Positions 2,805 to 49,389 of a stretch of 49,389 nucleotides of DNA are shown piece after piece. Under the pieces are notes generated by a model. That model had not been told where the DNA came from. It did not search any database and saw only the letters and a program-made list of their open reading frames with translations. Positions within the stretch are counted from its first letter, which is position 1; every line of letters starts with the position of its first letter. The stretch comes from a virus (Duplodnaviria; Heunggongvirae; Uroviricota; Caudoviricetes). The stretch spans positions 1 through 49,389 of the IMG/VR virus record IMGVR_UViG_2851966386_000003, one strand, 5' to 3'. The translations under genes were made by a program, and so were the position numbers.

Positions 2805-2810
2805 ATCCCC

Positions 2811-5930: not shown

Positions 5931-6067
5931 GTGATAGCCTCTATTTTGGATGTAAAATCCCCAGGGCCATTGGTAGCGCCCATTCAGGGTGGTCATTGGT
6001 TTTGGTAATTTCCGGTGTAACTTTGGTCGGTGGCACCGGACGTACAGCCCGCTTCGGCGGGTTTACG

Positions 6068-10148: not shown

Positions 10149-10476
10149 AGCATTATCAGCAGTTGAGCGCAGAGAGTACGTCCGCGCAGTGATTCGGATC
10201 ACCAGGCATCAGGGGCGCCTTACGACCACCGAGGCAATGAAAAAACTGGGGCTGAGCCGCGCTACTGTCCAGCGGTATTTTTCCGAAGCAGAAGCGACTG
10301 GCGAGGTTGTCCGGCATGGTCGTCTGGGGCTGTTCTGCGATCAGAGGGCCGTCATCGACTTTGACATGAAGCGTTTTGGCCTGGTGCCGAAAGTTGCTGT
10401 TGGGATGAATTACAGCCTGCTTGGCAGTCCTGTTTTTCAGCGAGTTTTAGATGTTCAGGAGGCTATTCATGGCTAA
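10141..10476 (+). CDS. Hypothetical protein (Ren-like position)
   Basis: 111-aa ORF overlapping end of P; position equivalent to lambda ren. Confidence 0.4.
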   Translation: MARALSAVERREYVRAVIRITRHQGRLTTTEAMKKLGLSRATVQRYFSEAEATGEVVRHGRLGLFCDQRAVIDFDMKRFGLVPKVAVGMNYSLLGSPVFQRVLDVQEAIHG

Positions 10477-11254: not shown

Positions 11255-11454
11255 CAATCGTAAAAACCCATATCGGCACCGTGATCACCAAAGACGGTCC
11301 GAAGGTAAAAAAACTGCACCAGACAGAGCGGATGTGGGTCGTCGGCAAAAACGAGTTTTACAACAAAGAAACCGGGCGCCGTCACTTTGCAGAAAATACG
11401 CGCCGCCGGCTGCTGCTCGACACCATCAAGCCTATTGAGGTGAAGCATGTTTAA
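11251..11454 (+). CDS. Hypothetical phage protein
   Basis: ATGA overlap with upstream stop (translational coupling). Confidence 0.45.
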   Translation: MTIVKTHIGTVITKDGPKVKKLHQTERMWVVGKNEFYNKETGRRHFAENTRRRLLLDTIKPIEVKHV

Positions 11455-11683
11455 ACAGAACGAAAAGGCTATTTCACAGATTGCGGAATATATCCCGCGC
11501 GCCTGCCGGGGTATGCAGCTGCAGGAAGCGAAAGCGCGTCTGGAGAAAAAAATCGCGCTCTATACCGATGACGGCTGTGATGTTGCCGTTCTTAACGCGG
11601 CGTTTGCATCAGCTCTTAACAGTCATACGCGGGAGTCTTTTTTTTCGTGCATTTATGCGCAGCTGCGCGAGGGGGCCAGATGA
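11447..11683 (+). CDS. Hypothetical phage protein
   Basis: 78-aa ORF, start overlaps previous stop. Confidence 0.45.
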   Translation: MFKQNEKAISQIAEYIPRACRGMQLQEAKARLEKKIALYTDDGCDVAVLNAAFASALNSHTRESFFSCIYAQLREGAR

Positions 11684-12347
11684 CAATCACATAACATGCA
11701 CTAAACGAGCTCATTCAGTCGCTTGAGTCGGCTGGTTAGCTGTCGCAATGGGCTGATATGCAGTTCTTGCTGTGGGACGCCCAGCGCCGGGCTGGTATCA
11801 CTGATGATCAAGATTACCCAAGCGATGATCGATGAGCTCGCGGTAAACAAGCAGCACTCATTGCCGGAGCCGAAAGATGGAGAGCCAATACTGCATTTGA
11901 AATAATAGCTACCTTTACTTTTAAAATTACACATTTAATGGTTGTATCTTTTTGCAGCAAGTAGTTAAATCAGTTTATCCCCGCGAGAGATTCGAAAAGG
12001 AGGGCCCAATTTTGTCCGAGTTTTTGTATTCCCCCGCATGCCGCTGCAGAGCACTACATCTGAGCGTCTGACCAGGGGATGAACCAAGATTGGATAGTGA
12101 GAAGAAAGTGGCGCGTAAGGCTGAGCTGAGCGTGCCGGCTGACCCGGATGGGGAGCAGCTTTCGCCGATGTCGTAGTGGACGTCGGTCAATGCATGAAAA
12201 GCTGAGAGGTCAGACAACCAACTTGCCAGAGGAGCATCTCCTGCGTGATGCTTGAGAGCTAACCGAAAGCAATGCGAAAAAGCATAAACTCGGCCTGCCA
12301 ATCGTCCTTATTATCCGCCTGATAGCAGTTTGTGACTGGGAGTGGAT

Positions 12348-12629
12348 ATGTTAGTAGATTATCTTTTGATTGGACTTAAGCGTCATGGAGAGATAAAACA
12401 AGTCAAGCATAAGGCTGGAGATATGCTTGAGTCGTCACTGGCTTTTTATCCTGCAAATAATTACAACCTTGAGCAGCCAAATTGCGTTTATGATGTTAAG
12501 GTAATTCACCACCGAGGGCATCGTTATGCTATTGCTATTGCATGCGATGTAAATGCTTCAGAAATTAATTCCTTGGTTGAATCCACAAAAATGAACCCCA
12601 TCCCCGATGGTGTAATCGGGGAAATCTGA
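12348..12629 (+). CDS. Hypothetical protein, AT-rich cargo gene
   Basis: ORF 12342..12629; ATG 12348 preceded by GGGAGTGG; composition visibly more AT-rich than flanking phage genes. Confidence 0.45.
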   Translation: MLVDYLLIGLKRHGEIKQVKHKAGDMLESSLAFYPANNYNLEQPNCVYDVKVIHHRGHRYAIAIACDVNASEINSLVESTKMNPIPDGVIGEI

Positions 12630-12806
12630 TGTTGGAATCAAAGGAGTTTGTCATAGATTGATGGAATGAATGTGGACGTACTTACATCATCTAGACCTGA
12701 TATAAGAGATGGTTTAGGCTGTGATAAACTCTAATGCGAACAAACGATCTAGTTACCCTGCGTTACATCACTATGGCCTGCCTGATCGAAAAAATAAGGA
12801 GGGGGT

Positions 12807-13295
12807 GTGTCAAATTTTCTTTCTTTTATTGGGGTGCTTGTATCAATAGCTAGCTGTTATTATGCATACAAAGCATTCACATCTGCTAAAGAAATATCCT
12901 TTCCGGAAAAAAAGCCTCGTGAAAATATGTGTGTTATTAGATTTTTCTCGAAAGAAGCTAAGGAATTTGAAGGTTTTATAAACAAAAATAAACATAAAAA
13001 AGTGTATTTGAATATTGAGTTTGAAGGAAGTGAATTTGAAATCAATGAGGATGGTGATTCCCGCTGGTTGGTTGTCTGGACTGATACCTTTCAGGAAGTC
13101 CCTAAAGGTGAAAAGCTTGACACTTCAAACTGTAACGGGTATCAATTGACTATCATTCCTCATGAGGATGGGTTTGGTAATTTTCACTGGTTTCGTGGAG
13201 CTTATCAACTATCGGGGCATTTCTATATTGATGGATATAGTGGGCCTTATCAGGGTCTAATGAGTGCTGTTATCTCTGCTGCCAAAACCATATAA
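12807..13295 (+). CDS. Membrane-anchored hypothetical protein, AT-rich cargo gene
   Basis: 162-aa ORF, GTG start 5 nt after AGGAGG; N-terminal TM helix (FLSFIGVLVSIASCYYAY). Confidence 0.5.
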   Translation: MSNFLSFIGVLVSIASCYYAYKAFTSAKEISFPEKKPRENMCVIRFFSKEAKEFEGFINKNKHKKVYLNIEFEGSEFEINEDGDSRWLVVWTDTFQEVPKGEKLDTSNCNGYQLTIIPHEDGFGNFHWFRGAYQLSGHFYIDGYSGPYQGLMSAVISAAKTI

Positions 13296-13380
13296 GCAGT
13301 TTTGATTTTTTTTCATCATTCATAATCAGTACGTCAGCCTGAACAACTAACATTTTTTATCCAGCGCCAAGTGAGGACAC

Positions 13381-13608
13381 ATGGCGCACAAAGTAAAAAA
13401 ACACTCGGATTATAGATTTGTATGCAATAACCCTTCTGATCGTGATGATTGTTCAGGTTGTTGTAGTGAATGCAGTATTTTCTGCGTGGGGCTTGGGCTT
13501 CTACGGCTATCTGATGAAGTCCTGACGATTTTCGCGGGATGCTCAATGCCTCATATCTGTGGTCTTGTTTACTGCGTTATCCAATCTGTTTTCCTGGCAA
13601 AAAAATAA
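13381..13608 (+). CDS. Small Cys-rich hydrophobic protein
   Basis: 75-aa ORF with GAGGA SD; followed by hairpin terminator. Confidence 0.3.
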   Translation: MAHKVKKHSDYRFVCNNPSDRDDCSGCCSECSIFCVGLGLLRLSDEVLTIFAGCSMPHICGLVYCVIQSVFLAKK

Positions 13609-13637
13609 AAGCCTTCTCTGCGGAGAGGGCTTTTTTA
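13607..13637 (+). terminator. Rho-independent terminator
   Basis: gccttctc tgcg gagagggc stem-loop followed by tttttt. Confidence 0.6.
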
Positions 13638-13696
13638 TAGTTGATTAAAATGAAAATCTACGCGGATCGGGGTTCTCACGGCGGTACATAATTGAC

Positions 13697-13834
13697 ATGT
13701 ATTTCTGCAGTGTGAAGTGCGCTAAAGACAAGCAGGTTGCGCGTTGTGGTAATGCGGTTCCTCCGCCTTTTGCTGAGGCGCTGGTGAGTGCTAATTTTCC
13801 GGAGATGTGCCTGAAAAAAGACATTGCAGCATGA
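13697..13834 (+). CDS. Small Cys-containing ORF (45 aa) between two terminators
   Basis: Manual translation MYFCSVKCAKDKQVARCGNAVPPPFAEALVSANFPEMCLKKDIAA; stop abuts terminator; no clear SD. Confidence 0.25.
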   Translation: MYFCSVKCAKDKQVARCGNAVPPPFAEALVSANFPEMCLKKDIAA

Positions 13835-13835
13835 T

Positions 13836-13862
13836 AAAACCCGCTTCGGCGGGTTTTTTATT
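13836..13862 (+). terminator. Rho-independent terminator
   Basis: aaacccgc ttcg gcgggttt followed by T-run. Confidence 0.65.
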
Positions 13863-13943
13863 ATGGAAAAACATCAATCTAAACATAAGCATGGTGTTGG
13901 CAAAAAGTGCTGCAGAGGGGTTGAACATTTCATGCAACCGGTA

Positions 13944-13963
13944 TACTGTTTATTTATACAGTA
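13944..13963. promoter_or_regulatory. LexA box (SOS operator) upstream of dinI homologue
   Basis: TACTGTTTATTTATACAGTA = CTGT-N8-ACAG palindrome, 20 bp upstream of dinI-like ATG. Confidence 0.65.
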
Positions 13964-13982
13964 TCTGTGTGAGGTGCTAACC

Positions 13983-14216
13983 ATGAAAGTTGAAGTCACA
14001 ATTGATAAACATAAAAAACTCCCTGATGGTGCCATACCTGCGCTTGAGCAAGAATTGTTGCGCCGCTTGTCCCAGTCTTATGATGACTGCAAATTAACCA
14101 TTCGATGCACAAGCAACGATGGCCTTAGCGTTTTGGGCGGCGCTGATGGCGATAAAAAGCGCGTTGAGCAAATTCTGCAAGAGACATGGGAAAGCGCAGA
14201 CGACTGGTTTTATTAG
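13983..14216 (+). CDS. dinI: DinI-family protein
   Basis: 77-aa product matches E. coli DinI along its length (MKVEVTIDK...LPDGAIPALEQELLRR...EQILQETWESADDWF); GAGGTG SD; real start is internal Met of ORF 13824..14216. Confidence 0.8.
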   Translation: MKVEVTIDKHKKLPDGAIPALEQELLRRLSQSYDDCKLTIRCTSNDGLSVLGGADGDKKRVEQILQETWESADDWFY

Positions 14217-14291
14217 TTTAATTGTGATGGTGGCGGCTCTTATCCCAGAGCATCGCATTCGCGTTTCCCTTGATGCTGCTACCCGTTTTTT

Positions 14292-14546
14292 ATGAGTGCG
14301 TCTGTATGTCGCTCAGGGGGTAATGTGACAGATGGTATTGACCCAAATCAGCAGGGGAATGTGTGGGCCACCATTACGGACGGATCCGGACATGTGTTGT
14401 GCTCATTCCGATTAGCTTTGAATGACCGAATCCTTTTATCGAATATTAATAGTGAAGTATCGGTTAGGAAAATTGCTAAAGATGAACACCTCTGGACAAG
14501 AAAATCATTAGTGGAGGTTATTAAGGAAATGAGCTCTAAAAATTGA
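14292..14546 (+). CDS. Hypothetical protein (weak call)
   Basis: 84-aa ORF without convincing SD. Confidence 0.2.
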   Translation: MSASVCRSGGNVTDGIDPNQQGNVWATITDGSGHVLCSFRLALNDRILLSNINSEVSVRKIAKDEHLWTRKSLVEVIKEMSSKN

Positions 14547-14629
14547 CTCATAACAGCTAGCTACATCATACTTGTAGTGCTGGTCTGAACAACCAGCCAC
14601 CTGACAGTAATGCGCCACCGGAGAACGTG

Positions 14630-15226
14630 ATGGCGCAGCTTCACTTAATAAAACAATCTCAAGGTATCCTGATCCCCGCGACGCCGGAGACCAGTGATTT
14701 TCTGCAATCAAAATGCAAGCTCGGATCCGTTCTGGAAGCCGATTATAAGCTTGTCCGCAATCCGGCGTTTCACCGCCGTTACTTTGCTTTACTCAATCTC
14801 GGCTTTGAATATTGGGAACCTACCGGCGGGGCGATTTCGTCTAACGAGCGCAGGCTTATCACAGGTTACGCCAAATACCTTGCTGCATATGGCGGGAGTG
14901 AATCGGCGTTGCTTGATGCCGCCGGGCAATATCTCGACCGGATAGCTGAGAAGCGATCCGGCTATATCAGTATTTGCAAATCCTTCGATGCTTACCGGGC
15001 GTGGGTCATCGTTGAAGCCGGCCACTATGACGCCATACAGCTACCGGACGGCACGCTGAAAAAACACCCTCGCAGCATTTCTTTTGCAAGCATGGACGAA
15101 TGCGAGTTCCAAGAACTGTACAAAGCATCGCTGGATGTTCTCTGGCGGTGGATCCTCTCTCGTTCATTCAACAGCCTGCAGGAAGCTGAGAACGCCGCCA
15201 ACCAGCTTTTAAGCTTCGCGGGGTGA
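14630..15226 (+). CDS. Nin-region phage protein of unknown function
   Basis: ORF 14627..15226; ATG 14630 after GGAGAA SD; nin-region position. Confidence 0.5.
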   Translation: MAQLHLIKQSQGILIPATPETSDFLQSKCKLGSVLEADYKLVRNPAFHRRYFALLNLGFEYWEPTGGAISSNERRLITGYAKYLAAYGGSESALLDAAGQYLDRIAEKRSGYISICKSFDAYRAWVIVEAGHYDAIQLPDGTLKKHPRSISFASMDECEFQELYKASLDVLWRWILSRSFNSLQEAENAANQLLSFAG

Positions 15227-15432
15227 TGCCGATGAAACACTCATGGTTTCACCATCTCGAATGCACAACGCAGCAGGCCGACGAATTGGTAGCGAGATAT
15301 CGTCAGCGGGGCGTAAAGGTCGAACGAAGCTTAAACCCTGACTTTATGACATGGACCGTCAGCGTGCAGCTGGTGGAGGACACAAATCCGCCTCGGCCAG
15401 ATTCTCGCTGGCGTAACAGGATGTGGGAGTGA
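15223..15432 (+). CDS. Hypothetical phage protein
   Basis: 69-aa ORF overlapping previous stop; start ambiguous (15223/15226/15232). Confidence 0.4.
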   Translation: MMPMKHSWFHHLECTTQQADELVARYRQRGVKVERSLNPDFMTWTVSVQLVEDTNPPRPDSRWRNRMWE

Positions 15433-15434
15433 GT

Positions 15435-15731
15435 ATGGCGAATCTTCGCAAAGCGGCCCGAGGCCGCGAATGCACAGTACGTATTCCTGGGTACTGCAAT
15501 GGCAATCCCGAAACCAGTGTGCTGGCGCATTACCGTCTGGCGGGAACGTGCGGCACAGGATGCAAGCCTGACGATACTCAGGGCGCTATTGCCTGCAGTG
15601 CTTGCCACGATCTCATTGATGGCAGAAAGAGAACCACCGATTACACCCGCGACGAACTGCGCCTGATGCATGCCGAAGGCGTGCTCAGAACTTTGGCTAT
15701 ATGGAAACAAGAGGGGTTACTGAAAGCATGA
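15435..15731 (+). CDS. YbcO-like Cys-rich putative nuclease
   Basis: Product resembles, from memory, DLP12 YbcO family (ANLRKAARGRECTVRIPGYCNGNPETSVLAH...ACSACHDLIDG); directly upstream of Q-like gene. Confidence 0.55.
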   Translation: MANLRKAARGRECTVRIPGYCNGNPETSVLAHYRLAGTCGTGCKPDDTQGAIACSACHDLIDGRKRTTDYTRDELRLMHAEGVLRTLAIWKQEGLLKA

Positions 15732-16543
15732 AACTCGAAGCATCCTTAAAACATTTCAGCCCTCAGGGTATGCACATCAGCGACGATGTGAGAAGCACAT
15801 CACCTGATCGCCTCAACGGTACGGATGTTATGGCTGGTATTGGGGTGACAAGCAGCAGGGCAAGGTTCGGACTGGCAGCGTTCTTTGGAAAGACTGGCAT
15901 CAGCAAGACTGATGAGCAGTTGGCCGTCCAGGCGCTAGCACGGTATGCGATTGAAACCGCACCGAAGAACGTACGCAAAACCGCGGGTAAAGAGCTGGGG
16001 CACTGCTGCCTGATTTTGGCGAAGTTTGCTTTTGCGGAGTATTCCCGTTCAGCTGAAACAACGGGAGCCTGCAGGGTATGTAATGGCACCGGACAGATTG
16101 AAACCACTACCACAGAACGCAAAGTTTCTAATCCGTGGGGCAAAGCACCATATTGGGCTAAAAAATCTCGTGCTGTCTGTCCTTCCGACTGGGATAAGTG
16201 GACTGAAGTCACAGCCGCCTTCAGCGCTAAGTGTGAAGCCTGTGACGGTAAGGGGAAAATAAATGCTCGCTGTCGCTGTGGTGGTTCTGGCCGGGTTCTG
16301 GACCGCAAAGCGACAAAAGAGCAGGGAGCACCAGTATATAAAATCTGTGAACGCTGTTCGGGGAATGGCTTTTCAACGATGCCGTCTACTGCTGCTTATA
16401 AAGCGATTCTGACGCTTATCCCAGACCTGCACATCAGAACATGGACACGCAACTGGAAACCTTTCTGCGATGCGCTGGTGGACCTGTGCTGGAAGGAAGA
16501 GGAGAGGGCAGATAAAGAGTTTCAACGAGCAACAGCTGATTGA
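15728..16543 (+). CDS. Putative late antiterminator Q, with four CxxCxGxG zinc-finger repeats
   Basis: Position upstream of pR'/tR'-like elements and lysis genes; repeats CRVCNGTGQ, CEACDGKGK, CRCGGSGR, CERCSGNGF; ATGA-coupled start. Confidence 0.55.
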   Translation: MKLEASLKHFSPQGMHISDDVRSTSPDRLNGTDVMAGIGVTSSRARFGLAAFFGKTGISKTDEQLAVQALARYAIETAPKNVRKTAGKELGHCCLILAKFAFAEYSRSAETTGACRVCNGTGQIETTTTERKVSNPWGKAPYWAKKSRAVCPSDWDKWTEVTAAFSAKCEACDGKGKINARCRCGGSGRVLDRKATKEQGAPVYKICERCSGNGFSTMPSTAAYKAILTLIPDLHIRTWTRNWKPFCDALVDLCWKEEERADKEFQRATAD

Positions 16544-38800: not shown

Positions 38801-39181
38801 ATGTTTAACCCTGATAAATACCGTTCAGTCACCTGGCTGAAGGGCGGGCGCGTATACCCGCAACTCGACTGTTTCGGCATTGTGAACGAGATACGCCGCG
38901 ATCTGAATTTACCCGTCTGGCCCGATTTTGCAGGGGTAACCAAAGACGACGGCGGCCTCGACCGGGAAGCACGCCGGATGATGCTTACCCTTGAGCGCTG
39001 CGAACCCTGCGAAGGGGCCGGGGTGGCCTGTTATTCCGGGTCGACTGTCACCCACGTAGGGATCGTGGTCAGTATCGATGGTCTGTTGCATGTGGCGGAA
39101 TGCAACCCAGGCACGAACGTCACCTTTCTGCCGTTGCCGCGATTTAAGCGGCGCTTTGTTCGCGTGGAGTTCTGGCAATGA
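38801..39181 (+). CDS. NlpC/P60-like tail-associated peptidase (gpK-like)
   Basis: Conserved Cys (LDCFGIV) and His (VTHVGIV) spaced as in NlpC/P60 peptidases; position before tip gene. Confidence 0.5.
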   Translation: MFNPDKYRSVTWLKGGRVYPQLDCFGIVNEIRRDLNLPVWPDFAGVTKDDGGLDREARRMMLTLERCEPCEGAGVACYSGSTVTHVGIVVSIDGLLHVAECNPGTNVTFLPLPRFKRRFVRVEFWQ

Positions 39182-42100
39182 CCATTCGTTTTTATCCTTC
39201 CCGGCTTCCCGGAGAACCACTTGAAACGCATGAGCATGGTGTTACGAGCATTCGCAGCTGGCTGGTTACCAATGTCGAAAACTATACCGACCGGGATGTC
39301 CCACCGCTGACCGTTGAGGTTGAGGGTAAGTCAATTCCGCCAGGTGAGTGGGCCACCTGCGTGATTCGCCCTGATAGTGATGTCAGGCTTTATCCGGTTC
39401 CATTCGGGCTGGAGGCCGCCACAATCGCGTGGATCGGTATCGGTATCTCCGTTGCCGCTGCAGCCTATTCGCTTGTTTTGATGAGCACCATTGATACGGG
39501 CGGCTATACCTCATCCACAGGGCGGAGTCTCGACCTGAACCCGGCGCGGGCCAACACCGCAAAACTCGGTGATGCCATTCGTGAGGTGTTTGGCCGGGTG
39601 CGTATCTACCCAGATTATGTGGTGCAGCCGGTTACCCGGTTTGATGCCGCCGATCCTACGAAAATGCGCGTCCAGATGCTGCTATGCCTAGGTGTCGGTG
39701 ATCTGATTTATACCAATGGCGATATCCGGGTAGGCAGCACTCCTGCATCGACGCTGCCGGGTTTCAGCAGCATCCATTACCCGCCAGGAGCGGACGTTTC
39801 CGGTGATGAGCGCAGTGAAAACTGGGTCAACAGTACGGAGGTCGGAGGGACATCATCCGGTACCGGACTGGATATGGCCCAGACGTCGCCGGACGCAGAC
39901 GACATTATCGCAGACAGCATGACCGTCTCCGGATCGAGCGTGACGTTTACCGGGCTGGATACGGATGATGATGACGATAATGACGAGAACGATAACGCGC
40001 TGCCGCCCAGCTGGGTCGCTGGCGCCGTGGTCGAACTGAAAGCCCCGGCGAACTACCAGATCACCACGGCGGCCGGATACAGTGTTATCGCCAGCCCGCT
40101 GCTGACGGAGATCGCGCCGGTAGTAGGTATGCCGGTAACGCTGGGGTTTAACTCAGTCGATTACGATCTGTTTATCGCGTCATATACTCCTGGTCAGGCT
40201 GCAGTGCCCGGCGCCGGGGGGAGTGCGGCAAAACTCCAGGCCAGTGCGGCCCCGACCACCTACGATTTTTCGACCAACTCCAGCTCGTTCACGATCACCT
40301 GGCAGGGGATTACCTACCCGGTGTCGCTGGTGGCTAACTATGTCTCGATGTCGGGACTGCTGGCGGCCATCACCGAGGGACTCACCGGCTCCGGCCTGGT
40401 TGCGCAGGACAACGGCGGCACCGTACTGATAACCGAGGCGGCCAGTCCGTTCGTTGGTGGGGCGATCACGTCCTCTTCACTGCCTGCAGCTGTTTTCGGT
40501 GATGCCCCGGTTTACACCTCCGGCACGGCATCAACCGGCGGCAGCCCGGCGGTAACGGCGAATGTGACACTCGCCTATAACTCTGCCACGGGAACGGCCT
40601 TTTCCGGCATGCCGGAGGGGGTGCAACGGCTTTCACTTGCTCACCGCGGGAATGAGTACCGGATTGTGTCAGCTGACGGTACAACGGCGACGGTGGCGCG
40701 CCTGGTTTCCGGTGCCGTTGATGAGACATGGCCGGGATTCACAGCCAGGACGATGATCGACTATGAGGCTACTGGTCTTAACGACACGCTGAGCTGGCTG
40801 GGGCCGTTCCTGGTTTGCCCTGAAAATGAGACCGTGGATATGTTCGAGGTGAATTTCTCCTTCCCGAACGGCATCTGTGGCTTTGACAGCAAGGGGAAAA
40901 AGCGGCTTCGGCATGTTGAGTGGGAGATTCAGTATCGCGTCTACGGTTCCGGATCGGGGTGGGTGAGTCACCAGGGAGAGTATGCGCTTAAAAACGTCAA
41001 CGGGCTGGGATTCACTGAGCGGATCACCCTCAGCTCTCCGGGACTGGTAGAGGTTCGCTGTCGCCGGCGCAATGAGCAGGGCTCAAACAACGCCAGGGAT
41101 TCGATGTACTGGCAGGCACTGCGCGGGCGACTGCTGACACGACCTTCATCCTATCCCGGCGTGTCGCTGATGGCGGTGACCGTCGAGACGGGCGGGAAGC
41201 TGGCGGCGCAGTCGGACCGTCGCGTTAACGTTGTGGCCACGCGCGCCTATGACTCAGGAGCGGCCAGAACCATTTCGGGGGCGCTGCTGCATGTCGGGAA
41301 CTCGCTGGGGCTGGAGATGGATGTCGACACCATCAACGCGCTGGAGTCTGCGTACTGGACGCCACGGGGAGAGTATTTCGACTTTGCTACCGGCGACAGT
41401 ATCTCAGCGCTGGAAATGCTGCAGAAGATAGCCAATGCCGGCAAGTCCCGCTTCCTGTTAAGTGATGGCCTGGCGACGGTCAACCGTGAGGGGATTAAGC
41501 CCTGGACTGGCGTGATTACTCCGCATGAGATGGTGGAGGAGCTGCAGAGCGGATTTACCGTACCGTCCGACGATGATTTTGATGGTGTCGACGTGACGTA
41601 CATCAACGGCGTCACCTGGGCAGAGGAGACCGTCAAATGCCGGACGCCTGATAATCCCACGCCGGTGAAAAGCGAGAACTACAGACTCGATGGGGTACTG
41701 AATCAGGATCACGCCTACCAGATCGGCATGCGTCGCCTGATGAAATACCTGCAGCAGCGGGTGACGTTCCAGACCACTACCGAGCTGGACGCGCTGTGCT
41801 ACAACACGGGCGATCGCATCGTGCTCACGGATGATATCCCGGGCAACAACACGATTTCCTGTCTGGTGGAGGCGATGACAACGGCTGGTGGCGTGACAAC
41901 GTTCACCGTTACGGAGCCGCTGGACTGGTCTTTCGAAAATCCCCGAGCGCTGATCCGCTATCAGGATGGCTCGGCATCCGGGCTGATGGTGGCGAGCAGG
42001 GTGGGTGATTTTCAGCTGTCAGTCCCGCACCTGAGCGAGTTTGATGACCCGATGAAGGTTGACCTGTCGTCGGCAACCATCGAGCCGATCCGCCTGGTGT

Positions 42101-42246
42101 TCTGCGGCTCAACGCGCCACGTCTACGACGCCATTGTAGAGGAGATCGCTCCGCAGTCAGACGGAACCTGTCAGGTCACCGCTAAAGAATACCTCGAATC
42201 GTTCTACCAGTACGACGACGCCACATACCCCGGCGACGTCGCGTAA
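39178..42246 (+). CDS. Tail tip / host-specificity protein (gpJ-like) with gpI-like N-terminal region
   Basis: 1022-aa product; N-terminal ~150 aa has a TM-like segment (AATIAWIGIGISVAAAAYSLVLM); last gene before fibre segment. Confidence 0.65.
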   Translation: MTIRFYPSRLPGEPLETHEHGVTSIRSWLVTNVENYTDRDVPPLTVEVEGKSIPPGEWATCVIRPDSDVRLYPVPFGLEAATIAWIGIGISVAAAAYSLVLMSTIDTGGYTSSTGRSLDLNPARANTAKLGDAIREVFGRVRIYPDYVVQPVTRFDAADPTKMRVQMLLCLGVGDLIYTNGDIRVGSTPASTLPGFSSIHYPPGADVSGDERSENWVNSTEVGGTSSGTGLDMAQTSPDADDIIADSMTVSGSSVTFTGLDTDDDDDNDENDNALPPSWVAGAVVELKAPANYQITTAAGYSVIASPLLTEIAPVVGMPVTLGFNSVDYDLFIASYTPGQAAVPGAGGSAAKLQASAAPTTYDFSTNSSSFTITWQGITYPVSLVANYVSMSGLLAAITEGLTGSGLVAQDNGGTVLITEAASPFVGGAITSSSLPAAVFGDAPVYTSGTASTGGSPAVTANVTLAYNSATGTAFSGMPEGVQRLSLAHRGNEYRIVSADGTTATVARLVSGAVDETWPGFTARTMIDYEATGLNDTLSWLGPFLVCPENETVDMFEVNFSFPNGICGFDSKGKKRLRHVEWEIQYRVYGSGSGWVSHQGEYALKNVNGLGFTERITLSSPGLVEVRCRRRNEQGSNNARDSMYWQALRGRLLTRPSSYPGVSLMAVTVETGGKLAAQSDRRVNVVATRAYDSGAARTISGALLHVGNSLGLEMDVDTINALESAYWTPRGEYFDFATGDSISALEMLQKIANAGKSRFLLSDGLATVNREGIKPWTGVITPHEMVEELQSGFTVPSDDDFDGVDVTYINGVTWAEETVKCRTPDNPTPVKSENYRLDGVLNQDHAYQIGMRRLMKYLQQRVTFQTTTELDALCYNTGDRIVLTDDIPGNNTISCLVEAMTTAGGVTTFTVTEPLDWSFENPRALIRYQDGSASGLMVASRVGDFQLSVPHLSEFDDPMKVDLSSATIEPIRLVFCGSTRHVYDAIVEEIAPQSDGTCQVTAKEYLESFYQYDDATYPGDVA

Positions 42247-42275
42247 TACCCCATAACAACCCCTAATTAACTCTT

Positions 42276-42301
42276 TTCGCTCAAACCCTCGTTTGGGCGA
42301 A
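42276..42301. promoter_or_regulatory. Candidate invertase recombination site (left), 26-bp imperfect palindrome
   Basis: TTCGCTCAAACC-CT-CGTTTGGGCGAA; inverted copy at 47771-47796; within ~58-bp inverted repeat 42271-42329. Confidence 0.6.
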
Positions 42302-42323
42302 GCCTCTTTTTGGAGCAAAAAAC

Positions 42324-44075
42324 ATGGCCTTTAACCCGGAGCTGGGGAGCACGTCTCCCGCTGTGTTGCTCGATAACGCCGAGCGTCTGGATAAGCTGGT
42401 CAATGGGCCCGAGCTGACTGAGCCGGATCGCGCTGGCGTTGAGCTGGATACCTGGCGCGGAATGATGGCGAAAAATGATCAGGTTACTGAAGACGCCCGC
42501 AAAAGTATTACTGCGCTGGGATTACCCTATTCGACATTATCGGAAGCACAGGCAGCCGTGAACAACGGTCAGATACCGGTGGACTCAGTTTGCTATGTCC
42601 GCAGCACTGACGACGCAGTAGCAATTGAGTATTTAAACGAAGCCGGAACACTGGTACCCACCGGGAATGTGTTGCCCTCAGAAGAAACCATCGACAAAAA
42701 ACTCAATCAGCGACTCGTCCCGGGTCAATACCTGTCGACATGGTTTCCTGTTTTTTTCGATCGAAACAGAAATGTTTACGCGTGGTTTGATGGTGGACGT
42801 TGGGACGTTGCTGATTTTGGCGCTAATGCACGAACAATCATTGAATCAGTACCTAACGCCTGGGCACAAAAATTTCTCCCCCAGGGAGACTACTCTCCAA
42901 ATTACTTTCCGTTTGTTCACGACAGAAATGGAAATGTTTATGCATGGTTCCATAACGGTATGTATGACGGTTATGGATTTGGGCCAAATATTGAAAAATA
43001 TATCTTAAATCTTGTCGGTGGGGCTTCTGCACAATCAGACAGTTCATTTATTGAAGGAGACCAGTATAAGTTCAACTTTAAAAAAGGTCGTGTTTTCAGT
43101 GGGCAGGCAGCGAGTGTTAACACTGCATTTTTTGGTGACTCATGGAACGAAAAAAACACGATCCCACAATCATTAATTAATGTTCTGGGAGGAATGTTTA
43201 AAGACCCGGCCTGGATAAGTTGCTCTAACCGCGCTGATGGTGTCATGGCTGGCATATCGCCTGTCGTTGCAACAAACTTTACGAAATATGATGGAGGGAG
43301 TAATAACACGAACCCGCCACCGTATGGATGCGGACCTGATGGGAATGGGTATTACAATAACAATACTGTTGGGTCTCTGGCCTGGACCGGTATTACAGCA
43401 ACCGACCTTTCAGTTTTCTATTATGATGGTTCCGGTTCGTTTACCATCACAATTGATGGCGGCACACCTGTAACAGTCAATGGTGCGAACACCGGAGCAG
43501 CTAAAAAGCACGATATCAGTGGGCTATCCGCAACAGCCCATAGCGTAACGATTCAGAGCCTGGGAAGTGGGGTTGTATCCATTTTGGGGATGTATGGAAA
43601 GAACAGCGCTGTGCGTTCCGGCGTAACGGTTTCAAGGATGGGGAATGGCGGGGCTATAGGAAGTGATTTCTTTAATTTTTCTGAGTGGATCAAACCTGTT
43701 GCACAGTATCTCGATATTGATTTGTTGTTCGTCATCCTTGGTACAAACGATTTCAGGTTAAGCAAGGGGACGACGCAATATAGAAATGGACTGGTGGAAA
43801 TAATTACAAAGTTTCGGGAAGCTACGCCCGGCATCTGTATTTGCCTGGTGTCACCGGGTCACTGTAATGCAACTGGTACTCCAGCTCTGTCAGAGTACGA
43901 TGCTGTCATGCGTGAACTGGCTGTTGAGTATAACGTCAACTTCATTAGTGGATATCAGCTATTCCCGAAAACGTACGATAACAGCAATGGGGCCTGGGAG
44001 GATGGTTTGCACCTGAGCTCTCTTGGCGCATATATATTGACAAATAAAATCAAAAAAGAATTTTTTCAGGAGTAA
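42324..44075 (+). CDS. Tail fibre/spike protein 1 with C-terminal SGNH/GDSL hydrolase domain
   Basis: N-terminal ~110 aa paralogous to fibre 2; SGNH blocks FFGDSW, ILGTNDF, DGLHLS. Confidence 0.7.
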   Translation: MAFNPELGSTSPAVLLDNAERLDKLVNGPELTEPDRAGVELDTWRGMMAKNDQVTEDARKSITALGLPYSTLSEAQAAVNNGQIPVDSVCYVRSTDDAVAIEYLNEAGTLVPTGNVLPSEETIDKKLNQRLVPGQYLSTWFPVFFDRNRNVYAWFDGGRWDVADFGANARTIIESVPNAWAQKFLPQGDYSPNYFPFVHDRNGNVYAWFHNGMYDGYGFGPNIEKYILNLVGGASAQSDSSFIEGDQYKFNFKKGRVFSGQAASVNTAFFGDSWNEKNTIPQSLINVLGGMFKDPAWISCSNRADGVMAGISPVVATNFTKYDGGSNNTNPPPYGCGPDGNGYYNNNTVGSLAWTGITATDLSVFYYDGSGSFTITIDGGTPVTVNGANTGAAKKHDISGLSATAHSVTIQSLGSGVVSILGMYGKNSAVRSGVTVSRMGNGGAIGSDFFNFSEWIKPVAQYLDIDLLFVILGTNDFRLSKGTTQYRNGLVEIITKFREATPGICICLVSPGHCNATGTPALSEYDAVMRELAVEYNVNFISGYQLFPKTYDNSNGAWEDGLHLSSLGAYILTNKIKKEFFQE

Positions 44076-44077
44076 TT

Positions 44078-44836
44078 ATGCCTATTACAGCCATTTTACT
44101 TGATATGAACGGTCCCGTCATACCGGGGATGAAAACCCTTGATGACTTTACTATTTCAAACTGGTTCATCGGGCTCCCGGATGTCAGTGCAACACCGTTC
44201 GCTGGTTATTATTTTGGAGAGCCAGCGCCTGATATCACTTATAACTCCTATAACAAAAACGCTCCGGCCGTCATCAATGGTTCTCTGAATAATGCTGACG
44301 GTTATATCTCTGTTAACAATACTGACTTTCTGGATACAAGTCAGAAAGCACCTCTGACGCTGACAATCTGTGGTGTGGCTAAACGGAATGCCGGCGGGGC
44401 CTCGCTGAATGCCCATATGATCGCAGATTTTTCAGGAAGCGGTTCAGCAGCGAGTGGCTTCTCAATTGGCTTCACGAACGGGACCGGGAATCTCTTTTGT
44501 GTAGGCCAGAATAACGGTCAGTCCTCCGCAGGGTATGCCTATGCAGCATTCCCGGCATCAATTGCCGTAGGTGATCTGTTCGCGTTTGCTGCCTCGATAA
44601 CCCAGGGGACAGTAACCATTGATATTTACAACCCGCAGACCGGGGCACTGATATCATCATCAGCCGCTTTCCCTGGTACCCGAGTGGCCGGGACAAATAA
44701 CGTCCTGCTGGGGAGGAAAACTGATAATAACAACGAAACAACGACCAAGTATATCAAGTCGGTTTTGTTGATGGAGGGCGTGCTTACTTCAGCAGAGAAG
44801 GTTTCTGTTTCGCAGTTCTTATTGTCGATGGAATAA
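44078..44836 (+). CDS. Fibre-associated protein co-transcribed with fibre 1
   Basis: 252-aa ORF 2 nt after fibre 1 stop; AGGAG SD. Confidence 0.45.
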   Translation: MPITAILLDMNGPVIPGMKTLDDFTISNWFIGLPDVSATPFAGYYFGEPAPDITYNSYNKNAPAVINGSLNNADGYISVNNTDFLDTSQKAPLTLTICGVAKRNAGGASLNAHMIADFSGSGSAASGFSIGFTNGTGNLFCVGQNNGQSSAGYAYAAFPASIAVGDLFAFAASITQGTVTIDIYNPQTGALISSSAAFPGTRVAGTNNVLLGRKTDNNNETTTKYIKSVLLMEGVLTSAEKVSVSQFLLSME

Positions 44837-44875
44837 AAAATCCCCTGAGATAAAACACTCAGGGGATTTATTTCA
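44837..44875. terminator. Bidirectional terminator between convergent fibre operons
   Basis: tcccctgag ataaaaca ctcagggga flanked by A-run upstream and T-run downstream. Confidence 0.65.
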
Positions 44876-44880
44876 TGACA

Positions 44881-45201
44881 TCATTGAAGTATACATTTTT
44901 CTCGTACAGAGCTCTTTATGGTGATTTGTTGAGAAAATTCTGGCATTTCCATAATCTGTATTTCAGCCTGCTCTGCCCATGATTTTGATGATGAGGTATC
45001 CAGCGAAATAGGGTAATCACCTACGATGACCTTTGCATTGTCATCATAACGCACTGACAATGTTGCTTTTACCTGACCAGTGTCATCCTGACGGACGCTT
45101 TCAACTGCATAAATTAAATCTATTTCAACATCCTTGTCGCAGAGATATCCACCGAGATAATGAATCTGGACTGTTTTTAATACTGACAATTTAAATGACA
45201 T
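44881..45201 (-). CDS. Fibre-associated protein co-transcribed with fibre 2
   Basis: 106-aa ORF starting 10 nt after fibre 2 stop; AAGGAA SD. Confidence 0.45.
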   Translation of the reverse strand: MSFKLSVLKTVQIHYLGGYLCDKDVEIDLIYAVESVRQDDTGQVKATLSVRYDDNAKVIVGDYPISLDTSSSKSWAEQAEIQIMEMPEFSQQITIKSSVREKCILQ

Positions 45202-45210
45202 AATGATTCC

Positions 45211-47748
45211 TTACGCAGGTAAGTAGTATTTTTCGCCGTAAATAAGCTTGCACAGACTGAATGCCGCTGCATCTGCGCCAGCCTTGTAACTGACGGTATA
45301 GCCGAGGTCATTCGGGTGGTTGAAATTAGGTGAGTTGAAAAGGGCTGACCATCCGTGTACCTCCACTCCCTGTTTGAACCAGGGGATTTCAGCTTCCAGT
45401 ACAAATGCGGATTTCTTCCGTGCTGTGGCTCGCGCCATGCTGTTATAGAGGCCAAACCGCACATCACCAACAACTTCAATACCACTCCCTGACCAGTCGG
45501 ACTCCACAAATGACCGTGACGGCGGCGGATCGAGTACTTCCTCAATAATGCTGTCCAGATTAATTTGCTGAATAGTGGTATTGATCAGGTCAGAGACCGG
45601 AATATTTTCTGCCACAGTAATAGTGTTACGATCAGCAGAAATGCCGGTAATTGTGTAGTCGCCTGCATTGCTGCCACCGACCCGAAGGATATGGCCTGGA
45701 CGGAGAATCTGGCCGCCCCAGCTGGTCGCTGCATTTCCTGTATCATATGAGAAAGCAGTACTAGAGATAGTATTACTGGCTGAATCAAACGTGAAGTTGC
45801 CCGTAACATTGAAAGTCCTCACAGGCCAGACAACGTTAAGGTTTCCCAGGGTAATGTTTTTGACGGTATTATGTTCAACATTGTTATGCGGCGTGGTACA
45901 AACAATCACGATCGCACCTTTTGCCGTGCACATATCAATAATGTTCTCAAGCTCTGCCTGCTGACGAGGGAAGGTCCTTCCACGATTAAAGTTCCCCACC
46001 GGAGCATCATTCATCCCCCCTACAATCAGAACGAAATCAGGCCAGTCGTCAGGGTTTTCACTGGTGAAATACGGTGAGTTTTGTAGCTGTGCTGGAAACT
46101 GCTGTAATGCCTGGCCAATTACGCACTGATTGTCGTCGATAAACTCAAATTCCCCATACGGTGATAAATATTTTTTCATCGCCTCAATAAATAGCGTATT
46201 CGGCGCAAAAGGCGCCCCCGGAACCCCGCCACCTGTTGAGCCTGCAGCTAATCCTACCGACGAACCCGTTGAAGTAAAAATAAGCCGTTTTTTTGTGACT
46301 GTTCTTACGCCATTACTAAACGAAATTTTACCAAATGGCGAAGTGTCGGCCGCTGTACCATCACCAATGAGTTTTTTGCGCAATTTAATATAGGGGTCAG
46401 TGACAGCACCCTGCAGAGTGGTGACATCGCTTTTGAGGTTCAGAATGTCTGTGGTCGGATCGCCTGAGAGCAAAAGTTTGAAATTGTTAACGGGAGAACC
46501 ACGATACTGAACCGTAACAGGTTTCGCTGCCTGCAGTTCGCCGCCCGTAAGCGCTGTGTTCGCCCCCTTCAGCAGATTGCGCGTTACCGAATTTCCGTAC
46601 AGGTCAGTTATAACAAGCGTCGTTGCGCCGGTATTAGCCACCACGGGTTCAAATGTTATCTGAGTACCGTCACCAAGCAGCCCGGGTATGGTTACGGACA
46701 CAGCGTTAGGGCTTGAGGAGTCACTTGTTACCGTCCCTTTGGTATACGCATTGAGAACCCGTGCCCTGTCACCTGGGTAGGTCAGCAAACGAAAATCACT
46801 GGCGGCCGCATTATACATGAGCAGATACGGGTATCCTGAGACAAGGTCTCCGACAGCCAGAGCAGTACCGCCAGCCTGTTTAATCGTACGTGCCGTCCAA
46901 CCGTTCAGCGACAGCGTCGGTGTTCTCGTGGTATTGGTTGCGCTGGGTGTAAAAACAAACGCGCGACCAGTGACCAGAACCTGTGATGATGTGGTGTTGG
47001 CAGTGTTTCCTGTATACGCGTCCGATGTCATTGTTACTGCCGAAACAATCGCAACGGAGTTCAACTCAACATTCAGCAGGCGTGCATTCAGCTCTGCCGC
47101 CACTGGGCCGGATGCGACAAGGACGAAATTGTTGGCGGTTCCTGTGCGGAACTCCATCAGTACCGGTTGATTCAGCAAAAGCTCATTACCAGCGAGCGCT
47201 GCGAAATTTTGTTTCTGGATTGCGCGAGTAACGGTATTCCCCTTCGCGTCTGTCACGGTCACACTGACCGCGCCGGTATTCAGGATGGGGGAAAGGAAAT
47301 AAATAAGACTGCTATCAACCAGCAGACCGGGAATAGTGATAGCGATAGTATTTGCCGCATTGCTGCTGACTGCCGTTGCAGCCTGATAGCCAGTTGGTAA
47401 CGCAGACAGCATTTTTCTCCCAGTGGCAACCAGCATACCGCCAACATTCATATACTCAATAGCCAGATATGCGTCATCAGGGCTACGCACATAGGTGCTG
47501 CTGCCTTCTGGAATATTCGCGATATCCGCCTGCGCCGCCGCCAGCGTCTGATACTGCTTACTGAGCGGGATCAGGTTCTGCCTGACCTCATCGTTTTTCG
47601 CCATCATCTGGCGCCAGGTATCGAGCGGTTCACCGCCGCGGTCGTTAACCGTACCTGCCGGACCGTTAACCAGCTCGTCAGCGCGCTTGACGTTATCCAG
47701 GAAAATTTCAGGCGTCGTCGTTCCCAAAGGCGGGTTAAGTTCGGCCAT
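45211..47748 (-). CDS. Tail fibre/spike protein 2 (alternative fibre)
   Basis: N-terminal ~110 aa paralogous to fibre 1 (MAELNPPLGTTTPEIFLDNVKRADELVNGP... vs MAFNPELGSTSPAVLLDNAERLDKLVNGP...); unrelated C-terminus; 5' UTR is inverted copy of fibre 1 5' UTR. Confidence 0.65.
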   Translation of the reverse strand: MAELNPPLGTTTPEIFLDNVKRADELVNGPAGTVNDRGGEPLDTWRQMMAKNDEVRQNLIPLSKQYQTLAAAQADIANIPEGSSTYVRSPDDAYLAIEYMNVGGMLVATGRKMLSALPTGYQAATAVSSNAANTIAITIPGLLVDSSLIYFLSPILNTGAVSVTVTDAKGNTVTRAIQKQNFAALAGNELLLNQPVLMEFRTGTANNFVLVASGPVAAELNARLLNVELNSVAIVSAVTMTSDAYTGNTANTTSSQVLVTGRAFVFTPSATNTTRTPTLSLNGWTARTIKQAGGTALAVGDLVSGYPYLLMYNAAASDFRLLTYPGDRARVLNAYTKGTVTSDSSSPNAVSVTIPGLLGDGTQITFEPVVANTGATTLVITDLYGNSVTRNLLKGANTALTGGELQAAKPVTVQYRGSPVNNFKLLLSGDPTTDILNLKSDVTTLQGAVTDPYIKLRKKLIGDGTAADTSPFGKISFSNGVRTVTKKRLIFTSTGSSVGLAAGSTGGGVPGAPFAPNTLFIEAMKKYLSPYGEFEFIDDNQCVIGQALQQFPAQLQNSPYFTSENPDDWPDFVLIVGGMNDAPVGNFNRGRTFPRQQAELENIIDMCTAKGAIVIVCTTPHNNVEHNTVKNITLGNLNVVWPVRTFNVTGNFTFDSASNTISSTAFSYDTGNAATSWGGQILRPGHILRVGGSNAGDYTITGISADRNTITVAENIPVSDLINTTIQQINLDSIIEEVLDPPPSRSFVESDWSGSGIEVVGDVRFGLYNSMARATARKKSAFVLEAEIPWFKQGVEVHGWSALFNSPNFNHPNDLGYTVSYKAGADAAAFSLCKLIYGEKYYLPA

Positions 47749-47770
47749 GTTTTTTGCTCCAAAAAGAGGC

Positions 47771-47796
47771 TTCGCGCAAACGAGGGTTTGAGCGAA
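47771..47796. promoter_or_regulatory. Candidate invertase recombination site (right), inverted copy
   Basis: ttcgcgcaaacg-ag-ggtttgagcgaa, reverse complement of left site with one substitution. Confidence 0.6.
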
Positions 47797-47839
47797 AGAG
47801 CGGAGCTTTTTACAATCAGTTATTTCAAGGAGTTAGATA

Positions 47840-48409
47840 GTGCTGATTGGCTATGCGAGGGTATCAACCGGGGATCAAAACCTCGACTTACAGAAAAATG
47901 CGCTGATCCGCGCAGAATGTGAGCTGGTTTTTGAGGATATGGCCAGCGGGAAAAATGCCCAGCGGCCAGGGTTAAAGCGCGCCTTACGCAGGCTTAAGCC
48001 CGGCGATGTGCTGGTGGTCTGGAAACTTGACCGACTGGGCCGAAGCGTGCGTGACCTGATTACACTCGTGTCGGAGCTGCAGGCGCGCGGGGTGAATTTC
48101 CGCAGCCTGACTGACAGCATCGACACCTCGACGCCTGCGGGACGTTTCTTCTTCCACGTCATGAGCGCCCTGGCGGAAATGGAAAGAGAGCTGATTGTCG
48201 AGCGTACACGAGCGGGTTTAGCCGCAGCGAGGGAGCAGGGGAGAGTCGGCGGCCGCCGCCGGGTAATGACTGAAGTAGTGGTGGAGCGGTGCCGCAGAAT
48301 GCTGGAGAACGGCGCTACCCGGCACCAGATCGCAGATGTGATAGGGGTGGGAGTGAAGACGATTTACAAATATTTGCCAGTACAATACAGCGATAAAAAA
48401 TCCCCTTGA
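47840..48409 (+). CDS. Serine DNA invertase (Gin/Hin/Pin/Cin family)
   Basis: Product aligns with Gin from memory (MLIGYARVSTGDQN...LVVWKLDRLGRS...FRSLTDSIDTSTPAGRFFFHVMSALAEMERELIVERT); C-terminal HTH. Confidence 0.85.
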   Translation: MLIGYARVSTGDQNLDLQKNALIRAECELVFEDMASGKNAQRPGLKRALRRLKPGDVLVVWKLDRLGRSVRDLITLVSELQARGVNFRSLTDSIDTSTPAGRFFFHVMSALAEMERELIVERTRAGLAAAREQGRVGGRRRVMTEVVVERCRRMLENGATRHQIADVIGVGVKTIYKYLPVQYSDKKSP

Positions 48410-48427
48410 GCAGGCACACTCAAGGGG
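48402..48427. terminator. Hairpin terminator-like element; T-run is on minus-strand side
   Basis: ccccttgag caggcaca ctcaagggg with aaaaaa upstream on plus strand. Confidence 0.45.
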
Positions 48428-48633
48428 AAAATACTACATAACATCATTGCTGTGTGCGTCTTCGCACACGCCTATCTTCTAAGAAGGCGCCCAAAGCTTC
48501 CAGATATTTCTGGTCTGAGTTGTTACATCATGGAGGAGGTGCCGATGTGATAGGTTAAGAGCGAAGACGGTCTGTAAGTACCTTCCGAAGTAGAGGAACA
48601 AGGATCATGAATTTGAGTCTATACCATCCCAAT

Positions 48634-48950: not shown

Positions 48951-48969
48951 TTTTGTGAGCGAGTTTATT

Positions 48970-49389
48970 ATGCAGTTCTACACGCCCGTTGAGTTACGCC
49001 AGATCATGCTGCTCCCGTTGTACAGTGACCTTGTGCAGTGCGGCTTTCCTAGTCCAGCGCAGGATTATGTTGAGCAACGTATTGATCTGAACGAGTTGCT
49101 CGTTAACCACCCAAGTGCGACGTATTTTGTCAAAGCCGCCGGCGACAGCATGAAAGACGCAGGCATAGGGGAAGGTGATCTTCTGGTCGTGGATAGCTCA
49201 AGAACAGCAGTTCATGGCGATATCGTTATTGCTGCTGTGGATGGGGAATTCACCGTTAAGAAGCTGCAGCTGCATCCGCGGGTTCAGCTTAACCCAATGA
49301 ACCCTGCATATTCGCCAATAGTCGTCGGTAGTGAGGACACTCTCGACGTGTTCGGGGTGGTTACGTACATCATTAAATCAGCTGGCTAA
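48970..49389 (+). CDS. umuD: UmuD (error-prone polymerase V subunit, LexA-like S24 peptidase)
   Basis: Product matches E. coli UmuD ([27 protein letters not shown]...[13 protein letters not shown]...[19 protein letters not shown]); start is internal ATG of ORF 48955..49389. Confidence 0.85.

Follow-up and report, generated by a model that had tools for sequence, protein, structure and literature searches.

A 5,497-bp segment (measured between two central dinucleotides) of the lambdoid Klebsiella prophage in IMG/VR virus record IMGVR_UViG_2851966386_000003 inverts in nature, at two recombination sites that enclose a pair of complete tail-fibre operons. The stretch analyzed here, 49,389 nucleotides (nt) in all and referred to as the window, is an almost complete prophage in which this segment is framed by a gene for a J-like tail-tip protein and by a gene for a serine DNA invertase (Table 1). 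Gin, Cin, Pin, and Hin are enzymes of this type, which invert DNA between inverted 26-bp sites and thereby switch tail-fibre or flagellin expression. Very probably the Klebsiella element is a working switch as well, i.e., a Gin-type site-specific inversion of two complete fibre operons, here named after fibre A (proximal to the J-like gene in the window) and fibre B (proximal to the invertase gene). Two complete receptor-binding operons that alternate by Gin-type inversion are carried by a common family of temperate Klebsiella siphophages.

Inversion of the fibre segment in Klebsiella prophages

Inversion was assessed in public Klebsiella assemblies encoding exactly the same fibre proteins, which were retrieved by exact-sequence look-ups of both fibres. 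Both arrangements occurred at one chromosomal position, marked by umuDC followed by LysE, LysR, and a BLUF-EAL gene, as anticipated by a first-pass annotation of the window, which had proposed that inversion would place either fibre operon behind the J-like gene. In lineage 1, one locus (L006) carries the segment in the orientation of the window (5497/5497 identical positions), whereas loci L009, L012, L015, and L004, from three other assemblies, carry its exact reverse complement (5497/5497), with left flanks identical at 3000/3000 positions and right flanks at 1499-1500/1500 where the contig allows. Lineage 2 encodes a 584-amino-acid (aa) variant of fibre A. Here, L010 differs from L013 and L011 by an inverted segment (5499/5499) between flanks that match at 5000/5000 and 4999/5000 positions on both sides. 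All these differences are conservative inversions, without loss or gain of bases, and are bounded by the centers of the 26-bp sites.

Sequence markers within the sites located the exchange. Site position 21 is G next to fibre A and C next to fibre B, and this base and the spacer that follows always travel with the fibre gene. The flank does not leave its neighbor, the J-like gene or the invertase. In lineage 2, the same holds for position 4, which is T on the invertase side only. Because position 21 and the spacer move with the fibre while position 4 and the flank stay, the exchange maps to site positions 5-20, a 16-bp interval centered on the CT core (the resolution is thus 16 bp, not 2 bp). 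This interval is where a serine invertase cuts.

One assembly, GCA_965183215.1, contains traces of both arrangements. A single contig (L016) runs from the J-like gene through fibre B and fibre A into 101 nt of J flank plus a site (127 nt), and a separate 1,405-bp contig (L145) joins the invertase gene to fibre B, with an N exactly at marker position 21 (junctions at L145:1-170 and L016:15400-15574). Three of the four possible junctions (J-B, J-A, and invertase-B) are therefore present, and these junctions, together with the N at the marker base, suggest that both orientations coexisted in this culture, as they seem to have done. A contig of a Logan assembly that breaks at site position 20 (L147) is likewise suggestive. 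A further Logan contig, broken after the ATG (L146), was discarded as evidence of inversion, since a break there is expected from the repeat itself and is uninformative.

Recombination sites

The two sites reside in the longest inverted-repeat pair of the region, an ungapped repeat of 55 nt with 54/55 complementary positions (98%) as delimited by a repeat finder. Allowing for one T indel, direct reading of the arms extends the repeat to 42271 on the left and to 47800 on the right. The repeat that the first-pass annotation had placed at 42271-42329 and 47745-47802 is therefore real, with its one indel and one mismatch, but its right arm was set about 2 nt off. Each arm consists of a site, a spacer, a T run, a GGAG ribosome-binding site (RBS) and, 7 or 8 nt further on, the ATGGCC that opens a fibre gene, so that both arms do run into the fibre start codons at 42324 (+) and 47748 (-). 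Also in agreement with the earlier description, each arm holds a 26-bp imperfect palindrome around a central CT, with the consensus TTCGCTCAAACC-CT-CGTTTG(G/C)GCGAA; the two copies are inverted relative to each other and share the CT core when read in the same sense. They consist of two imperfectly symmetric 12-bp half-sites around the 2-bp core, end 22 nt 5′ of their fibre ATGs, and are the only copies in the window (exactly 2 versus 0.00 expected, 100 shuffles). Aligned with gix (TTATCCAAAACC TC GGTTTACAGGAA, Mu record) and cix (TTCTCTTAAACC AA GGTTTAGGATTG, P1 record), a comparison suggested at the outset, both sites agree with them in 12-2-12 layout, in having an AAAC/GTTT core, and in their TT/AA ends. 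Among related phages, the commonest downstream variants keep the T run 3′ of the site, and the 5-nt spacer varies.

The invertase

A Gin/Hin-like invertase gene had been recognized just outside the right repeat, and similarity searches bear out this assignment. The gene starts 43 nt outside the right site, and its product contains Resolvase and HTH_7 domains, shows 62% identity with Gin and 66% with Cin, and matches the structures of Mu Gin (4m6f and 3uj3) with an E value of 6e-72, as compared with 9e-34 for gamma-delta resolvase. The catalytic serine, singled out for inspection in the first-pass annotation, is present: Ser9 aligns with the nucleophilic serine of Gin and Cin in an RVST motif (changed to alanine in PDB entry 3uj3), and R7 is also conserved. 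The enzyme further retains the basic helix-B residues K46, R47, and R50. Basic helix-B residues that contact the enhancer are unique to Fis/enhancer-dependent invertases (McLean et al., PMC3798978), and the Klebsiella enzyme may share this requirement.

A promoter-like element precedes the invertase gene. Since its −35 hexamer falls in the outer half-site on the right, inversion leaves this element where it is. Judging from this overlap, the bound invertase could occlude its own promoter-like element, i.e., be autoregulated. The hairpin predicted at the end of the gene would, in addition to terminating it, keep leftward transcripts out of the switch region. An identical 14-nt sequence, ATAAAAAATCCCCT, begins this hairpin (48393-48406) and the one between the two fibre operons (44833-44846).

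Two complete fibre operons

The first 118 residues of fibres A and B are 53% identical (E, 1e-28), and no relationship is seen beyond them, much as the first-pass annotation had it (paralogous over ∼110 N-terminal residues, with unrelated C termini). A structural model of this N-terminal domain (predicted local distance difference test [pLDDT], 84.5) found its best PDB matches in six short (∼55-residue) chains of the tail of siphophage Sf11 (E, 0.013-0.08; 26-33% identity). Sf11 is a siphophage whose tail tip holds tailspikes via an adaptor (PMC12724387). These modeled similarities hint that the domain may anchor the fibre on the tail. Sequence searches of solved structures with fibre A, fibre B, and a profile of the N-terminal domain returned nothing meaningful.

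The C-terminal part of fibre A is an SGNH/GDSL esterase domain (Pfam Lipase_GDSL_2; E, 1.4e-12; 48.9 bits, cutoff 32.9), in which GDS at ∼271-273 and DGLH near the C terminus represent the GDS and DxxH blocks of the SGNH catalytic domain; the protein matches PHROG 14987. Fibre B contains a weak SGNH-like region (Lipase_GDSL_2, 28.1 bits, under the 32.9 cutoff) and matches PHROGs 9750 and 18703 (tail fiber). Each fibre gene is followed by a partner gene. The 252-aa partner of fibre A has no Pfam match, but its AlphaFold2 model (mean pLDDT, 87.4) resembles, in Foldseek searches of the PDB, the carbohydrate-binding domain of AbnA (5hon; E, 3e-7) and also legume lectins, CBA120 TSP2, and the lectin-like domains of neurotoxin Hc; on the strength of this model, it is probably an accessory carbohydrate-binding subunit. 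The 106-aa partner of fibre B has no Pfam or PHROG match and accompanies fibre B in other loci (L072 and L095). The terminator hairpin between the convergent operons is flanked by an A run on one side and a T run on the other and probably works bidirectionally, its function on the + strand being suggested by the A run.

Table 1. Coordinates of the switch region and of selected prophage genes in the window
Feature	Position	Strand	Description
Integrase	1-1188		
RecE/RecT pair	1689-5996		RecE, 1061 aa
YdaT-toxin-like open reading frame (ORF)	7608-8144		Next to the immunity region
Late antiterminator Q	15701-16543	+	Pfam Antiterm; E, 2.6e-49
J-like tail-tip protein (central fibre)	39178-42246	+	1022 aa; Pfam FNIII-A_GpJ, Phage-tail_3
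Left arm of the 55-nt repeat	42275-42329	+	Site, 5-nt spacer, T run, GGAG RBS at 42312-42315, ATGGCC
Left recombination site	42276-42301	+	TTCGCTCAAACC CT CGTTTGGGCGAA; central CT, 42288-42289
Fibre A	42324-44075	+	583 aa; N-terminal anchor to about residue 119, then SGNH/GDSL esterase domain; J-proximal
Partner of fibre A	44078-44836	+	252 aa; predicted concanavalin-A-like lectin (jelly-roll) fold
Terminator hairpin between the convergent operons	44838-44869		12-pair stem, scored on the - strand
Partner of fibre B	44881-45201	-	106 aa; starts 9 nt past the fibre B stop codon
Fibre B	45211-47748	-	845 aa; same type of N-terminal anchor, unrelated C-terminal part; invertase-proximal
Right arm of the 55-nt repeat	47743-47797	-	Delimited by repeat finder
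Right recombination site	47771-47796	-	On the - strand, TTCGCTCAAACC CT CGTTTGCGCGAA; central dinucleotide, 47783-47784
Promoter-like element 5′ of the invertase gene	47788-47816	+	TTGAGC-17-TACAAT; 9/12 match, consensus scan only
Serine DNA invertase, Gin/Cin/Hin type	47840-48409	+	189 aa; GTG start; Pfam Resolvase (E, 1.6e-49), HTH_7
Terminator hairpin at the end of the invertase gene	48401-48428		Hairpin scan

Proposed mechanism

All late genes of the prophage are on the + strand, 3′ of the gene for the antiterminator Q. The J-like gene (PHROG 469, tail protein; E, 7e-295; PHROG 31, central tail fiber J) is the last fixed one 5′ of the segment, and it ends in a different reading frame from fibre A. 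In the model that we propose, the invertase would bind the two inverted 26-bp sites, cut them at the central CT/AG, and invert the intervening segment. The late, Q-antiterminated transcript would continue from the J-like gene across the left site into the proximal operon and stop at the central terminator, while the distal operon, being antisense to late transcription, would stay silent; fibre B is thus presumed to be silent in the orientation of the window. Upon inversion, the other operon would gain an identical leader, and the homologous anchor domain would dock its fibre at the same position of the tail tip. Inversion would thereby change host specificity, possibly for capsule or O-antigen.

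Weighing of the evidence

Several observations weigh against this model. The RNA of the site (42275-42311) folds into an 11-pair hairpin with the T run behind it, a combination that scores as an intrinsic terminator in the interval from the J-like gene to the fibre gene; as predicted, such a structure could limit read-through from the J-like gene. Because of that score, read-through may depend on Q, and since Q is encoded by the prophage, passage of the late transcript across the hairpin-forming site is plausible. A second set of points concerns Fis. In Mu, P1, and Salmonella, the cis-acting enhancer to which Fis binds is contained in the 5′ portion of the invertase gene. The first 270 nt of the Klebsiella gene were aligned to gin and cin and scanned, crudely, for 15-mers resembling Fis sites; candidates appeared at 71-85 and 107-121, but there was no convincing pair spaced by 48 bp. 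The residues of Hin that contact Fis (Q151, R154, and L155; PMC3798978) are R, R, and M in the Klebsiella enzyme, which keeps the arginine alone. Finally, some relatives (L021, L039, L045, L071, L118, and L133) have the invertase and one recognizable site but no inverted repeat, so that the site alone is no proof of switching in every phage.

Among the alternatives, the one that fares best, although it is improbable, accepts the inversion and denies the on/off switch: each operon would have its own promoters and be active in either orientation, or the flip would benefit the lysogen, for example through surface modification or exclusion by the esterases, and not the host range of the virion. 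Weak promoter-like hexamers do occur within the segment, and inversions by PinQ/PinR in Escherichia coli cryptic prophages have been reported to alter the adsorption of other phages (PMC12529663; 10.1101/2025.03.28.646004). However, a consensus scan of the region yielded 9 promoter-like hits versus 8.3 expected from shuffled sequence, none of them 5′ of the distal fibre. Moreover, both fibres keep one type of leader and anchor, a terminator separates their operons, and the layout is the one required if a single upstream promoter is to serve alternative cargo.

It is considerably less probable still that the rearrangements stem from general homologous recombination that depends on RecA and uses the 55-nt repeats together with the diverged repeat (∼350 nt) formed by the N-terminal coding regions of the two fibres, with the invertase irrelevant or inactive. 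The repeats suffice in length for rare homologous exchange, and a mosaic breakpoint between lineages in the N-terminal coding region (see below) shows that such exchange happens here. Nonetheless, both lineages exchanged within site positions 5-20, and the 33 identical nt past position 21 took no part. General recombination is disfavored by this pattern, because exchange over a 55-nt repeat would not be confined to 16 bp. The adjoining gene, in addition, is an intact Gin homologue with all catalytic residues, and site and invertase co-occur across phages.

The idea that the two orientations are assembly artefacts can practically be dismissed: short-read assemblies often break here, as many partial N-terminal fragments show, and one contig carries J flanks at both ends, but reads and the usual final k-mer are longer than the 55-nt repeat, each orientation is found, with perfectly matching flanks, in 1.4-4.9-Mb contigs that come from separate projects, and a misjoin would not preserve the marker pattern.

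Comparison with known invertase switches

By homology, the recombinase and its sites are members of the Gin/Cin family, while the arrangement of the fibre genes departs from that of Mu and P1. The closest parallel to the Klebsiella switch is the G segment of Mu (and D108), with a homologous invertase that also starts with GTG and is encoded just outside the right end of the segment, inverted 26-bp sites of the 12-2-12 type, and two convergent sets of fibre and partner genes. The outcome in Mu, an alternative host range, would be shared too. In Mu, however, the left gix site lies 509 nt inside gene S (Mu record), so that the constant part (Sc) is fixed and C-terminal parts are swapped in frame. 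In the Klebsiella prophage, the site precedes the ATG by 22 nt, and the anchor domain is duplicated inside the segment (53% identity). No site inside the fibre coding sequence, as in Mu and P1, was found in the window, where the ATG is the first start codon past an in-frame upstream stop. Because the crossover is 5′ of the start codon, whole genes are exchanged. The contrast with Mu G and P1 C drawn in the first-pass annotation thus holds, the G-segment boundary of Mu and a cix site of P1 being inside S. Further differences are that Mu is a myovirus, whereas the Klebsiella phage is a lambdoid siphovirus with a J-like tip and enzymatic fibres (SGNH esterases), and that the partner of fibre A is predicted to be lectin-like rather than a U-type (Tfa-type) assembly chaperone, the 106-aa partner having no family match.

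The C segment of P1 with Cin, Min of p15B, and Pin of e14, Rac, and Qin resemble the Klebsiella switch in that the invertases belong to one family (66% identity between Cin and the Klebsiella enzyme), the sites are of one type, and tail-fibre genes are the cargo. In P1, a cix site is inside the S gene (P1 record). The p15B system has six sites and undergoes multiple inversions, whereas the window has exactly two. In the Min and Pin systems, the crossover falls within fibre coding sequence (PMC12529663; also general knowledge). Hin/hix of Salmonella resembles the Klebsiella switch in recombinase family and site layout and in that whole genes are switched with their coding sequence unaltered. 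It differs in that Hin inverts a promoter together with its own gene relative to fixed genes, whereas here the promoter side would be fixed and promoterless operons exchanged. Outside this family, SusC/SusD-type inversions in Bacteroides, catalyzed by tyrosine recombinases, bring gene sets behind one fixed expression signal (PMC9881135; also general knowledge). They are alike in placing alternative gene sets by inversion but involve an unrelated class of recombinase, another host, and genes other than phage fibre genes. In the literature searched, coverage of which was incomplete, we found no description of the Klebsiella switch or of a Gin-type invertase that swaps whole fibre genes. The genome announcement of KPP5665-2 annotates a "DNA invertase" and does not discuss inversion.

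Distribution among Klebsiella phages

IMG/VR was scanned with an exact 20-mer from the site, and at least 120 stretches carried it; conservation of site positions 1-20 across these loci is partly an artefact of this procedure. Among the matches listed, the site always adjoins either a J-like gene, at its 3′ end, or an invertase gene, at its 5′ end. The RBS-ATG module follows in 148/148 of these sites; the distance from site to ATG is 20-23 nt in 147 of them and 29 nt in the other. At least 19 IMG/VR loci have the full set, in which a J-like gene and an invertase accompany two anchor domains and a pair of inverted sites separated by 5.1-7.4 kb, and site and invertase co-occur across phages. The same layout, with the same sites, is seen in phages KPP5665-2 and Kpn_R1. 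The 114 distinct fibres among the matches listed fall into at least 50 mutually unrelated C-terminal clusters, which include GDSL and SASA esterases, beta-helix depolymerase-like or pectate-lyase-like and CotH-like types, and many without a Pfam match. All of them share an N-terminal domain whose conservation ends abruptly at about residue 119. One fibre (L068:4442-6511) combines this anchor domain with a CotH kinase-like C-terminal domain (Pfam; E, 6e-20), which is unusual for a phage receptor-binding protein.

The six relatives with one recognizable site were treated, for want of an inverted repeat, as single-cassette or degenerate versions. In the record of Klebsiella phage ST846-OXA48phi9.2 (L001:3477-8079), a single site precedes one fibre gene and four more genes on the same strand, and the Hin gene is in pieces. 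Single-site relatives with one fibre and a broken or divergent recombinase look like locked derivatives.

Database homologues of the fibre N terminus are mostly labeled "partial," are 86-216 aa long, lie at the ends of Klebsiella contigs (proteins P0030-P0149), and are often misnamed "flagellar biosynthesis protein." The switch locus routinely breaks short-read assemblies.

Movement of segments between lineages

Comparison of lineages 1 and 2 (L009 versus L010) revealed J-like genes that are 78-100% identical in patches and invertase genes that are 80-93% identical, so that these two genes differ by 10-20% between the lineages. The segment between them (locus coordinates 9953-15250), in contrast, is 99-100% identical for 5.3 kb, starting exactly at the left site, and its identity falls only in the last 200 nt, which correspond to the N-terminal coding region of fibre A. 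Because the block of identity starts exactly at the left site, entire segments are transferred from one phage lineage to another, one of the breakpoints being the site itself. The transfer may have been mediated either by the invertase or by homologous recombination in the conserved module.

A broader hypothesis, which we regard as rather unlikely but worth stating, is that the module of site, RBS, and anchor is a docking point for the movement of operons between co-resident Klebsiella prophages, combined with a Q-gated hairpin at the site. Any invertase of the family would then recognize the near-identical sites in other prophages, which may drive reassortment of host-range cassettes, and the hairpin in the site RNA may be a terminator or attenuator passed only by Q-modified polymerase. 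One locus (L116:3218-11800) was considered as a product of recombination between sites of different prophages: two J-like 3′ ends, 55% and 97% identical to that of the window, face each other across one fibre segment, and no invertase is present. It was set aside, since a chimeric contig explains it equally well.

Implications for host range

Klebsiella phages are limited by capsule-type specificity, and enzymatic receptor-binding proteins set their host range. If the switch model is true, one lysogen can release virions of two specificities, and host-range prediction from prophages must consider the orientation of the segment, which short-read assemblies will either break or fix arbitrarily. 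The whole-gene design needs no in-frame crossover, so that the conserved leader and anchor domain are all that a cassette requires to fit; such a natural plug-in slot could serve the engineering of phage tropism. To the textbook invertase switches the system would add a third layout, in which a fixed promoter presumably serves exchangeable complete operons.

Prophage context

Besides the genes listed in Table 1, the window holds those for a repressor, the O and P replication proteins, lysis, terminase, capsid, and tail. The YdaT-like ORF and the RecE/RecT pair are ordinary lambdoid content and fit a prophage that looks complete. A umuD/umuC pair is located 3′ of the invertase gene (window, 48955-49389; L004:7093-8779) and is also present in the ST846-OXA48phi9.2 record. 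The cargo beyond umuC varies, from SIR2_2 with Ham1p-like and adenosine deaminase genes in L008 (18654-20979) to WYL with a short-chain dehydrogenase in L010, L011, and L013, and this region may be a hotspot for defence or moron genes.

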